A stretch of DNA of 64,000 nt, taken from assembly GCF_056746865.1 (NCBI RefSeq), contig NZ_CM163382.1, one strand, 5' to 3'. The notes beneath the pieces are model-generated. The model worked only from the letters and a program-made list of their open reading frames with translations, was not told the origin of the DNA and searched no databases. Each line of letters begins with the position of its first letter. Position 1 is the first letter of the stretch. The translations under genes and the position numbers were made by a program. Shown piece after piece: positions 2,185 to 5,010 of this stretch.

Positions 2185-3150
2185 ATGAATACTGTCGGCA
2201 CGCCGTTGCTATGGGGCGGATTCGCTGTTGTTGTCGCCATTATGCTGGCTATCGACCTGTTGTTGCAGGGGCGTCGTGGGGCACATGGCATGACCATGAA
2301 ACAGGCTGCGGCCTGGTCGCTGGTCTGGGTGACGCTGTCGTTACTGTTTAACGCCGCTTTCTGGTGGTATCTGGTGCAAACCGAAGGTCGCGCCGTTGCC
2401 GATCCACAGGCACTGGCCTTTCTCACGGGTTATCTGATTGAGAAATCGCTGGCGGTCGATAACGTCTTTGTCTGGCTGATGTTGTTCAGCTATTTCTCTG
2501 TTCCGGCGGCGTTACAACGGCGCGTGCTGGTGTATGGCGTGCTCGGGGCGATTGTTCTGCGTACCATCATGATCTTCACTGGCAGCTGGCTGATTTCGCA
2601 GTTCGACTGGATCCTGTATATCTTCGGTGCCTTCCTGCTGTTTACCGGCGTGAAGATGGCGCTGGCCCATGAAGATGAATCAGGCATTGGCGACAAGCCG
2701 CTGGTGCGCTGGCTACGCGGTCATTTGCGCATGACCGACACCATCGACAACGAGCATTTCTTTGTGCGTAAGAATGGCTTGCTGTATGCCACGCCGCTGA
2801 TGCTGGTGCTGATTCTGGTGGAATTGAGCGACGTGATTTTCGCCGTGGATAGCATTCCGGCTATCTTCGCCGTGACCACTGACCCGTTCATTGTGCTGAC
2901 CTCAAACCTGTTTGCGATCCTCGGCCTGCGTGCGATGTATTTCCTGCTGGCGGGCGTAGCAGAACGTTTCTCGATGCTCAAATATGGCCTGGCGGTGATT
3001 CTGGTGTTTATCGGTATCAAGATGCTGATTGTCGACTTCTACCATATTCCAATCGCCGTCTCGCTGGGCGTGGTGTTTGGCATTCTGGTGATGACGTTTA
3101 TTATCAACGCCTGGGTGAATTATCGGCATGATAAGCAGCGGGGAGAATGA
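2185..3150 (+). CDS. alx: TerC-family inner-membrane protein Alx (putative Mn2+ exporter)
   Basis: 321-aa multi-pass membrane ORF; sequence recognised; sits downstream of the riboswitch leader. Confidence 0.93.
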
Positions 3151-3249
3151 TTCGCTGTATATTAAGCCATTACTAGAGATAACTCATTCCAGACAAAGGT
3201 GAGCTATTAATTATGTAATCGGCTTATAGCTCTTTACAAAAAGACCGCA

Positions 3250-3530
3250 CGGGTGTTGGTGGCGTCAAAATCGCCGAAGCGTTCCCTGGAGGCCGGGGCG
3301 ACGCGCATGGATGCGCGGCGAGGGCGCATCTTACAGGGACGTTCCCTTGCGCCCGACCCGGTAGCCGCAAGGGATAAGCTGAGGGAACCGCGCAGCGGCG
3401 ATTTTGTTCGCCAGAGCCTGGGGGTGCAGGGGGCGGCGGCGATTGGCCGCCCCCTGCGCGCTCCCTGCGGCATTGACTTTATATGGCATAGCACATTAAA
3501 GGAGCGCAACCGTTCTCATATTCCAAATAG
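3250..3530. repeat. GC-rich structured intergenic element with nested inverted repeats (unclassified repeat family)
   Basis: Arm gtcaaaatcgccgaagcg (about 3263-3281) pairs with cgcagcggcgattttg (about 3391-3406); separate 9-bp G/C stem gggggcggc...gccgccccc at about 3430-3455. The ORFs called here have no RBS and repeat-like composition. Confidence 0.4.
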
Positions 3531-3765
3531 TTTTGCCCATATGTTATCTAATCAGCCTTAGTAGCCAGTCCTTCCCTCTGTTTATGTCAAATAAATGTAA
3601 CCATGAAGTTGCAAAATATGACCTCTCTTTAAAATCCAGCATTTTTCGCTTCCCGAAGCTGTAACTTTCCTTATACTCGACCTTGCAAACACTTTGTTAC
3701 ATCCTGAAAGATGCGTCGACAGAACGCACCAGGGATGTGCGACAACACAATGAAAGGATCGAAAA

Positions 3766-5010
3766 ATGACTACGCAACGTTCACCGGGGCTATTCCGGCG
3801 TCTGGCTCATGGCAGCCTGGTAAAACAAATCCTGGTCGGCCTTGTTCTGGGGATTCTTCTGGCATGGATCTCAAAACCCGCGGCGGAAGCTGTTGGTCTG
3901 TTAGGTACTTTGTTCGTCGGCGCACTGAAAGCCGTTGCCCCCATCCTGGTGTTGATGCTGGTAATGGCGTCTATTGCTAACCACCAGCACGGGCAGAAAA
4001 CCAATATCCGTCCTATTTTGTTCCTCTATCTACTGGGCACCTTCTCTGCTGCTCTGGCCGCAGTAGTCTTCAGCTTTGCCTTCCCTTCTACCCTGCACTT
4101 GTCCAGTAGCGCGGGTGATATTTCGCCGCCGTCAGGCATTGTCGAAGTGATGCGCGGGCTGGTAATGAGCATGGTTTCCAACCCCATCGACGCGCTGCTG
4201 AAAGGTAACTACATCGGGATTCTGGTGTGGGCAATTGGCCTCGGTTTCGCACTGCGTCACGGTAACGAGACCACCAAAAACCTGGTCAACGATATGTCGA
4301 ATGCCGTCACCTTTATGGTGAAACTGGTCATTCGCTTCGCACCGATCGGTATTTTTGGTCTGGTTTCTTCTACCCTGGCAACCACCGGTTTCTCCACACT
4401 GTGGGGCTACGCGCAACTGCTGGTCGTGCTGGTTGGCTGTATGCTGCTGGTGGCGCTGGTGGTTAACCCCTTGCTGGTGTGGTGGAAAATTCGTCGTAAC
4501 CCGTTCCCGCTGGTGCTGCTGTGCCTGCGCGAAAGCGGCGTGTACGCCTTCTTCACCCGCAGCTCTGCGGCGAACATTCCGGTGAATATGGCGCTGTGTG
4601 AAAAGCTGAATCTGGATCGCGATACCTATTCCGTTTCTATTCCGCTGGGTGCCACCATCAATATGGCGGGCGCAGCAATCACCATTACCGTGTTGACGCT
4701 GGCTGCGGTTAATACGCTGGGTATTCCGGTCGATCTGCCCACAGCGCTGCTGTTGAGCGTAGTGGCTTCTCTGTGTGCCTGTGGCGCATCCGGCGTGGCG
4801 GGGGGTTCTCTGCTGCTGATCCCACTGGCCTGTAATATGTTCGGTATTTCGAACGATATCGCCATGCAGGTGGTTGCCGTCGGCTTTATCATCGGCGTAT
4901 TGCAGGACTCTTGCGAAACCGCGCTGAACTCTTCAACTGACGTGCTGTTCACTGCGGCAGCTTGCCAGGCAGAAGACGATCGTCTGGCAAATAGCGCCCT
5001 GCGTAATTAA
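3766..5010 (+). CDS. sstT: Na+-coupled serine/threonine symporter SstT
   Basis: 414-aa membrane ORF; sequence recognised (DAACS family); GAAAGGA RBS upstream. Confidence 0.93.

Follow-up and report, generated by a model that had tools for sequence, protein, structure and literature searches.

What is the G+C-rich, highly structured sequence that lies between alx and sstT in Escherichia coli, and what could it do? The question is raised by a 64,000-nucleotide stretch of E. coli DNA (contig NZ_CM163382.1 of assembly GCF_056746865.1, hereafter the window), in which the genes ygjR, alx, sstT and ygjV follow each other and the alx–sstT spacer measures 615 bp, from the end of the alx stop codon at 3150 to the sstT ATG at 3766. 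A first-pass annotation, made from the sequence alone, had described nested inverted repeats at 3230–3560 and had offered three identities for them: a repeated intergenic family, a remnant of a small mobile element or a structured RNA. We show here that positions 3247–3510 of the window, on the plus strand, are TRIP1d, one of the five locus-specific copies of the E. coli intergenic repeat TRIP1, and, by comparison of copies, that TRIP1, read on the plus strand, forms a unit of about 270 nt whose predicted ten-helix fold is kept by compensatory substitutions in at least eight genera of Enterobacteriaceae. The maintenance of this predicted fold by compensating mutations suggests that TRIP1 would act as a structured RNA.

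Results

Identity of the spacer element

TRIP1, whose copies are named TRIP1a to TRIP1e, was described in strain K-12 by Rudd (1999; Res Microbiol 150:653). It was surveyed in 6725 genomes by Li et al. (2024; Genes 15:236, PMC10888264), who added TRIP1d as a new copy, found it in 23% of the genomes and described it as a 264-bp repeat located 96 bp past the alx stop codon and 255 bp before the sstT start, always in forward orientation. Applied to the alx stop and the sstT ATG of the window, this definition designates exactly 3247–3510, on the same strand as alx. The sequence is no different from that of the published element, and the position, the length, the G+C content (0.66 here; 62–65% for TRIP1 in PMC10888264) and the folding energy of about −145 kcal/mol (published ensemble energy of TRIP1d: −145.4 kcal/mol) are the same. 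The interval first proposed, 3230–3560, does contain the element, but the conserved unit is narrower and spans 3247–3510, or 3243–3512 according to the covariance model presented below. Positions 3230–3510 are 87.4% identical to their best match in the K-12 strain KLY, between dusC and yohP (TRIP1c locus); in K-12 MG1655, nhmmer E-values are 2e-60 at the TRIP1a locus and 3e-59 at the TRIP1c locus, and an identity of 89% between TRIP1d and TRIP1a is given in PMC10888264. Two open reading frames of this region, 3253–3561 on the plus strand and 3234–3509 on the minus strand, had been considered non-coding. This view holds: neither has an NCBIfam match, and they are not conserved reading frames, because paralogous copies differ by 1-nt indels within them. 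At TRIP1 loci, RefSeq carries no annotation or, in some genomes, a 'hypothetical protein'.

The element is therefore already known, and its main documented effect is the promotion of chromosomal inversions: 156 chromosomal rearrangements between copies of TRIP1, a 1.3-Mb inversion among them, are described in PMC10888264. The same paper reports both orientations of TRIP1a and TRIP1c, predicts a 'double-Y' RNA fold, cites Rudd for a cruciform potential and gives the function of TRIP1 as unknown. Occurrence in other genera, a covarying fold, a strand bias, a match to the Rfam family TwoAYGGAY and GGA loops are not found in it, and a search of its text for other genera, covariation, Rfam, CsrA and Klebsiella returned none of these terms. 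The sequence strings of the element were not found in papers by literature search.

The initial reading had not assigned the element to a known family and had named REP and BoxC as repeats that it could match; the family turns out to have a name already, but it is neither of these. REP/BIME, BoxC and ERIC/IRU elements are, like TRIP1, dispersed, G+C-rich, palindromic, intergenic and variable between strains; TRIP1 has no sequence similarity to them, is much longer and of low copy number, and is predicted to form a branched multi-helix structure, where they consist of one imperfect palindrome. In the loci examined, the Rfam model naRNA4, which derives from REP, has matches outside TRIP1 but not in it.

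A predicted fold kept by compensatory substitutions

When folded as RNA, the plus strand of 3243–3512 reaches a minimum free energy of −144.4 kcal/mol (ensemble, −148.5 kcal/mol), to be compared with −120.4 ± 5.6 kcal/mol for 200 dinucleotide-preserving shuffles, none of which folds as well (z = −4.3). In a plain MAFFT alignment of 40 copies, with a structure predicted by RNAalifold, 96.4% of the cells are paired versus 37–51% when the partners are slid, and compensatory changes are found at 23 of the 45 pairs, a number reached by none of 500 shuffles. A covariance model, R1, was then built, for which 25 well-aligned copies were used and the structure was checked by hand; it found 48 full-length copies in the DNA examined. 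In the R1 alignment of these 48 copies, 95.4% of the cells are paired (38–42% when slid) and 50 of the 69 pairs, distributed over all ten helices, have compensatory changes, these pairing figures being inflated since the copies were aligned by fitting them to R1. The MAFFT alignment provides a check that does not depend on the R1 alignment, and single-sequence folds provide another: they recover helix P5 in most copies and helix P6 in many, with lineage-specific complementary stems. The structured character attributed to the spacer at first sight is thus upheld, both by its folding energy and by helices that compensatory changes maintain in other copies and genera.

The architecture shown by these comparisons is predicted to comprise a long closing helix P1, a three-way junction with two hairpins, the 12-bp G+C helix P5 and a terminal helix P6 followed by AAC (Table 1). 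The outer inverted repeat first noticed is present, with arms of 16 nt at 3266–3281 and 3391–3406 that are 88% complementary and separated by 109 nt. Likewise, the 9-bp all-G/C stem formed by GGGGGCGGC (3429–3437) and GCCGCCCCC (3446–3454) exists and extends to the 12 perfect pairs of P5. In P1, U–G wobbles are restricted to the 5′ strand (C–G in 21 copies and U–G in 18 at one pair), and the block ACCGCGCAGCGGCGATTTTG is invariant in 39–40 of 40 copies while its pairing partner varies. P2 (helices 4 and 5) is mostly invariant, with 86% and 99% of its cells paired. Hairpin 1 has compensatory changes at 8 of 9 pairs (98.6% of cells paired) and GGA in its loop in 46 of the 48 copies; for hairpin 2 (helices 7 and 8), compensatory changes concern 5 of 7 and 1 of 2 pairs, and GGA is in the loop in 47 of the 48 copies. 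The stems below both loops therefore covary while GGA is kept, and the two GGA triplets are, together with the block ACCGCGCAGCGGCGAUUUUG on the 3′ side of P1 and with AGGGAUAAG, the most conserved parts of the unit. P5 (helix 9) varies in a compensatory way at 11 of 12 pairs (98.5% of cells paired); it is not an intrinsic terminator, as no U-run follows it. P6 (helix 10) does so at 5 of 8 pairs, with lineage-specific complements such as GCGCUCC/GGAGCGC, CGUUCGC/GCGAACG, CGUUCAC/GUGAACG and GCGCCG/CGGCGC. Similarity between copies stops at the terminal AAC (3508–3510).

Two further pairings were considered and left out of the structure. An extra outer helix, 3250–3254 with 3420–3425, appears in the single-sequence fold, and its sides do not co-vary in alignment A8 by inspection; the pairing of UUCCCU with GAGGGAA was rejected in favour of the AGGGA register, which covaries. 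In addition, the motif GCGGCGATT is found both in the 3′ strand of P1 (3396–3403) and in the loop of P5 (3437–3444); as both occurrences are complementary to AATCGCCG in the 5′ strand of P1 (3269–3276), an alternative pairing is possible. The motif in the P5 loop is kept in Escherichia, Klebsiella and Atlantibacter, not in Mangrovibacter.

Finally, G–U cells outnumber A–C cells by 111 to 12. This excess indicates that the plus strand is the one folded as a single strand, without being a strict proof of RNA, as G–T wobbles are also tolerated in single-stranded DNA hairpins. Among the identities proposed at the outset, that of a structured RNA is supported, at the level of comparison, by the strong covariation and by this strand asymmetry.

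Copies, alleles and distribution

Megablast of 3230–3560 matched 5425 of 5426 complete E. coli genomes, at a median of 3 and a maximum of 5 places, the paralogues being 85–90% identical. With one to five occurrences per E. coli genome, the element does belong to a repeated intergenic family, as had been envisaged, and this family is the published TRIP1. Its other E. coli loci are dusC–yohP, aqpZ–lysO, efeU–putP and copA–ybaP. K-12 has only two full-length copies, TRIP1a and TRIP1c, located in NC_000913.3 at 915013–915281 on the plus strand and at 2229122–2229391 on the minus strand, respectively. In TRIP1b (L058 2854–2998, K-12 putP–efeU; L007 3943–4087; L numbers denote loci examined), only the two ends of the unit are present, the 5′ strand of P1 being joined directly to P5 and P6 by deletion of the whole two-hairpin domain; the same deleted form is found on a 243-kb plasmid carrying a copy of the efeUOB–putPA region.

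At alx–sstT, the filled allele is present in 1668 of the 5426 genomes, BL21-AI among them. K-12 has a shorter spacer with unrelated sequence (about 2090–2250 of L001), and the allele of ATCC 25922 is shorter still. The unrelated sequence that replaces TRIP1d in these strains, CCCTCTCCC...GGGAGAGGG...GGGGTGAGGG, is presumably BoxC-like and looks complete in K-12 and partial in ATCC 25922; the K-12 allele does not align with 3151–3570. The alx–sstT spacer has thus three alternative repeat alleles across strains. In the left flank of TRIP1d, only about 17 nt adjoining the repeat (from about 3230) are common to the K-12 TRIP1c copy.

Allelic differences are also observed at other loci. At dusC–yohP, the copies of K-12 (L002 3013–3282) and AZ161 (L006 2492–2759) are in opposite orientations; the flanks adjoining the repeat are unrelated, and homology restarts at 100% identity on the yohP side, so that the difference looks like an allele replacement rather than an in-place inversion. 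Genomes with TRIP1e (L060 5219–5560, versus L061 and L062) are without the antitoxin-like ybaQ, which in K-12 separates ybaP and copA, and a third copA–ybaP allele has neither ybaQ nor TRIP1e and carries instead a REP-like sequence of about 115 bp.

Other species were scanned in a collection holding one genome per species, using the invariant 19-mer CCGCGCAGCGGCGATTTTG as query. Copies were found in several Escherichia species, Klebsiella, Kluyvera, Citrobacter freundii, Atlantibacter, Mangrovibacter, Raoultella, Enterobacter and Entomohabitans, with at least 13 places in one Klebsiella chromosome. A metagenome-assembled genome labelled only 'Proteobacteria bacterium' (L015) also has a full copy. 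The 19-mer matches in records with non-enterobacterial names were discarded, nhmmer showing no further similarity. Outside E. coli, copies are often arranged as head-to-head pairs, with 5′ ends 26–125 nt apart, or as arrays of alternating orientation; such pairs or arrays occur in Kluyvera, Atlantibacter, Mangrovibacter and an uncultured enterobacterium. One Atlantibacter genome has, at two of its loci, the same whole pair of about 650 bp with its AT-rich centre, the two occurrences being 92% identical. Past the 3′ end of each Atlantibacter copy (L041 1780–1835 and 2436–2470) come one to three short palindromes (GGAAYWRTTCC); in the portion of Weinberg's alignment consulted, hairpin units of about 30 nt similarly recur after TwoAYGGAY loci of Psychromonas.

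Table 1. Coordinates of TRIP1d, its predicted helices and flanks in the window, and of TRIP1 pairs and arrays at other loci
Feature	Positions	Strand	Remarks
Left flank, specific to the TRIP1d allele	3151–3246		no homology to the alx–sstT spacers of K-12 or ATCC 25922
TRIP1d repeat, 264 bp	3247–3510	+	published position and length; R1 match 3243–3512, 306.7 bits
P1, 5′ strand (TGGCG, C, AAAATCGCCG)	3260–3276	+	pairs with 3396–3413; compensatory at 11/16 pairs; 95.7% of cells paired
P1c and P1d, 5′ strands (AGC; TCCCT)	3278–3280, 3283–3287	+	pair with 3378–3380 and 3370–3374; compensatory at 2/3 and 5/5 pairs
P2, junction helix, 5′ strand (GGC CGGG)	3291–3297	+	pairs with 3357–3360 and 3364–3366
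Hairpin 1	3299–3320	+	stem 3299–3307/3312–3320; apex CAUGGAUG (CA-UGGA-UG); GGA 3309–3311
Hairpin 2	3322–3354	+	stems 3322–3328/3348–3354 and 3333–3334/3341–3342; apex ACAGGGACGU; GGA 3337–3339
P1d and P1c, 3′ strands	3370–3380	+	within the conserved segment AGGGATAAGCT
P1, 3′ strand (CGGCGATTTT, G, CGCCA)	3396–3413	+	within the near-invariant block ACCGCGCAGCGGCGATTTTG
P5, 12-bp G+C hairpin	3426–3457	+	3426–3437/3446–3457; loop GGCGATTG; contains the 9-bp stem first noticed
P6	3458–3507	+	GCGCTCCC (3458–3465) pairs with AGGAGCGC (3500–3507); encloses 34 variable nt
Right flank, specific to the TRIP1d allele	3511–3570		homology to the other alleles restarts at about 3571
TRIP1 pair or array, L055	4–270/297–564	−/+
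TRIP1 pair or array, L038	1444–1710/1836–2103	−/+
TRIP1 pair or array, L041	1822–2089/2180–2445	−/+
TRIP1 array, L023	61–1319	− + − +	four copies
TRIP1 array, L026	4482–6349

Elsewhere in the window, the only Rfam match at the gathering threshold is the RNase P RNA class A (rnpB; 34308–34684, minus strand, 318.6 bits). The alx leader (1903–2184) has no Rfam match at E ≤ 1; we take alx to be preceded by a pH-responsive element, or manganese riboswitch of the yybP–ykoY type, and the match expected on this assumption did not appear.

Similarity of the 5′ domain to TwoAYGGAY

On the TRIP1d region, Rfam returns nothing at gathering thresholds and, at E ≤ 1, only TwoAYGGAY (RF01731), a family described as having two AYGGAY loops and a very long P1. 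The whole model (positions 1–168) aligns with 3254–3419 at 33.1 bits (E = 0.008). Similar scores are obtained for other copies (30.9 bits in E. coli K-12, 32.7–34.6 bits in Atlantibacter and Mangrovibacter). As all of them are under the gathering score of 43, TRIP1 is not filed as a TwoAYGGAY member.

The 5′ domain of TRIP1 nevertheless has the TwoAYGGAY architecture. A long P1 closes the two-hairpin core, with 16 pairs, extended by P1c and P1d, that covary, and hairpin 1 aligns with the first AYGGAY hairpin of the model. Loop 1, AUGGAU, fits the AYGGAY motif; loop 2 is AGGGAC here, with G in place of Y, and AGGGAY in most E. coli copies, while AUGGAU and AUGGAC occur in other copies. The two families have in common, besides the long P1, two adjacent hairpins with A-Y/G-GGA-Y loops, a multi-copy character and the lack of a tie to particular genes. 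In the part of Weinberg's 2010 alignment consulted, the apex UACAGGGACGU of hairpin 2 (also written as ACAGGGACGU) is found identical in a Psychromonas sequence, the Psychromonas sequences are multi-copy and lie among other repeats, and none of six enterobacterial reference accessions is present. TRIP1 differs from TwoAYGGAY by an additional conserved 3′ domain (P5, P6 and AAC), located outside the Rfam model.

Discussion

Our results identify the alx–sstT element as a copy of a known repeat and attach to this repeat a predicted fold and a family resemblance. The explanation that we consider the best overall, which we hold tentatively and as somewhat short of probable, combines the identity with TRIP1d, the conserved fold and an RNA whose GGA loops would bind CsrA or a similar protein. 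The plus strand would be transcribed, from a neighbouring gene or from a promoter in the flank, as the repeat has no conserved promoter of its own. The RNA would then fold so that the two invariant GGA triplets, separated by 28 nt, are exposed in hairpin loops, both in the form CA-N-GGA-NG. This form is that of the optimal CsrA/RsmE binding hairpin, and a spacing of 28 nt is within the range that one CsrA dimer can bridge. A single CsrA dimer could accordingly bind both loops, and the RNA would be a CsrA-binding or CsrA-titrating element; alternatively, some other GGA-loop-reading protein could have it as its ligand. Judging from this likeness of the loops to the CsrA binding site, TRIP1 is possibly a CsrA target, CsrA binding being a candidate only. 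At the DNA level, homologous recombination between dispersed copies would lead, as a side effect, to the published large chromosomal inversions.

A more specific proposal, possible but doubtful, is that TRIP1 would be the enterobacterial branch of the orphan class TwoAYGGAY, whose motif would form the 5′ domain of a ten-helix RNA of about 270 nt, made in K-12 and using its two invariant loops to bind CsrA or another GGA-loop protein. No function is known for TwoAYGGAY, but its loops have been found by Gardner and Eldai to match the CsrA binding motif, and a sequestration of CsrA has been proposed (PMC4333381). In the literature searched, the link that we propose between TRIP1, TwoAYGGAY and CsrA appears to be new; it is based on a sub-threshold similarity and on a resemblance of motifs. 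The known CsrA-titrating RNAs CsrB, CsrC and RsmX/Y/Z also have GGA in hairpin loops, in a CA-N-GGA-NG context, and the TRIP1 sites are spaced for bridging by one dimer. These RNAs differ in that their sites number up to about 20 and that they come with a regulated promoter of their own, a terminator and little other structure, whereas TRIP1 has two sites (plus the GGA in AGGGAUAAG and in P6) within a large conserved fold, and no recognisable promoter or terminator.

Several observations weigh against an RNA that binds CsrA or a similar protein. Besides the inflation of the R1 pairing figures and the tolerance of wobble pairs in single-stranded DNA mentioned above, neither the window nor the other copies scored reach the gathering score of RF01731. 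A scan of the element gave no convincing sigma-70 promoter or intrinsic terminator, and it revealed neither a promoter-like site facing the element nor a hairpin with a clear U-run; conservation is lacking over roughly the first 18 positions of the model, so that the repeat contains no conserved promoter. Orientation relative to the neighbours varies, the sense strand of K-12 TRIP1a being antisense to aqpZ and lysO, and the dusC–yohP copy is inverted between strains. Copies are dispensable, since about 70% of strains do without TRIP1d and the two-hairpin domain has been lost from TRIP1b in K-12. Finally, in the gene table of an E. coli CsrA CLIP-seq study, as far as it was accessible, dusC and ybjE are not flagged and no peak coordinates are given for the loci, multi-mapping reads having perhaps been discarded. 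A Cappable-seq supplement has no transcription start entry at the expected coordinates.

TRIP1 could, instead, be a selfish, non-autonomous element. An enzyme acting in trans would recognise its fold, adopted either by single-stranded DNA or by an RNA intermediate, and this fold would be selected for propagation rather than for a function in the host. We regard this as unlikely, even though it would account for much of the distribution: presence or absence according to the strain, a copy number going from one to five in E. coli up to at least 13 in a Klebsiella chromosome, either orientation in the same spacer, head-to-head pairs and alternating arrays, with the Atlantibacter composite at two loci of one genome, a sharp 3′ end (AAC), the lack of a conserved promoter, and the multi-copy Psychromonas sequences seen among other repeats in the consulted part of the alignment. 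Yet neither a target-site duplication nor a clean empty site was found in the filled/empty pairs at alx–sstT, dusC–yohP and copA–ybaP; the alleles differ by whole spacer segments replaced together with their own flanks, which looks like exchange by homologous recombination. No transposase, integrase or reverse transcriptase adjoins any copy examined, and in E. coli each copy has a fixed locus of its own. No matches were found in phage genomes, and those in plasmids and viruses are mainly mislabelled chromosomes, chromosome-derived segments or host flanks of a prophage and of an insertion sequence (IS). Miniature inverted-repeat transposable elements and other non-autonomous transposable elements are also small, non-coding and polymorphic in presence and orientation, and form inverted pairs in some genera, but a solo TRIP1 copy has no terminal inverted repeats, and no target-site duplication, identifiable parent element or transposase was found for it. 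Of the remnant of a mobile element suggested in the first-pass annotation, the polymorphism of the copies and the flips in orientation are thus retained, and the duplication and the transposase are missing.

A phage-borne TRIP1 was considered in the context of three IMG/VR stretches, and rejected, since one is a chance match and the two others are host DNA, with a prophage junction in TRIP1c and an IS in TRIP1a. In the former (L064 3246–3427), TRIP1c is cut at ...ACCCGGTAGCC and adjoins phage-like genes. In the latter (L065 766–953), TRIP1a is interrupted within the P5 stem by a sequence starting with CTGAGGAATCCCCAG, which we take to resemble an IS10-type end. TRIP1 may be a target for insertions.

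A third explanation, which we find improbable, is that TRIP1 acts in cis, in the 3′ untranslated or intergenic part of mRNAs, as a stable block past transporter genes (alx, aqpZ, dusC, copA), protecting the upstream mRNA from 3′ exonucleases or blocking read-through to the gene that follows. REP/BIME elements act as mRNA stabilisers and read-through blocks in this way, the element lies 96 nt past alx on the same strand, the upstream gene is co-oriented at several loci (aqpZ in L003, dusC in K-12), and the predicted folding energy is −144 kcal/mol. However, the element does not keep a constant orientation towards the upstream gene and is absent from the alx–sstT spacer in most strains; moreover, any stable hairpin would suffice for such a role, leaving the invariant GGA loops, the invariant 20-nt block, the ten-helix architecture and the strand bias unexplained.

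It is highly improbable that TRIP1 matters as double-stranded DNA only, as a G+C-rich, cruciform-forming repeat without RNA role and with homologous recombination as its sole consequence, since, despite the 156 published rearrangements with their 1.3-Mb inversion, the cruciform potential cited in PMC10888264 and the fact that no transcript evidence was found, a cruciform needs a simple palindrome rather than ten helices with branched junctions and asymmetric internal loops, a G–U to A–C ratio of 111 to 12 is not expected from the symmetric constraint of a duplex, and the loop sequences are more strongly conserved than the stems.

Taken together, a covarying, branched fold predicted across genera, a strand bias, a sub-threshold TwoAYGGAY match and the GGA loops allow a specific RNA hypothesis to be put forward for a DNA repeat that had no explanation. 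If TRIP1 is indeed the enterobacterial branch of TwoAYGGAY and its RNA binds such a protein, a function would be provided both for a repeat that has been without one since 1999 and for an Rfam family that has been without one since 2010, and it could be tested in the best-studied bacterium.

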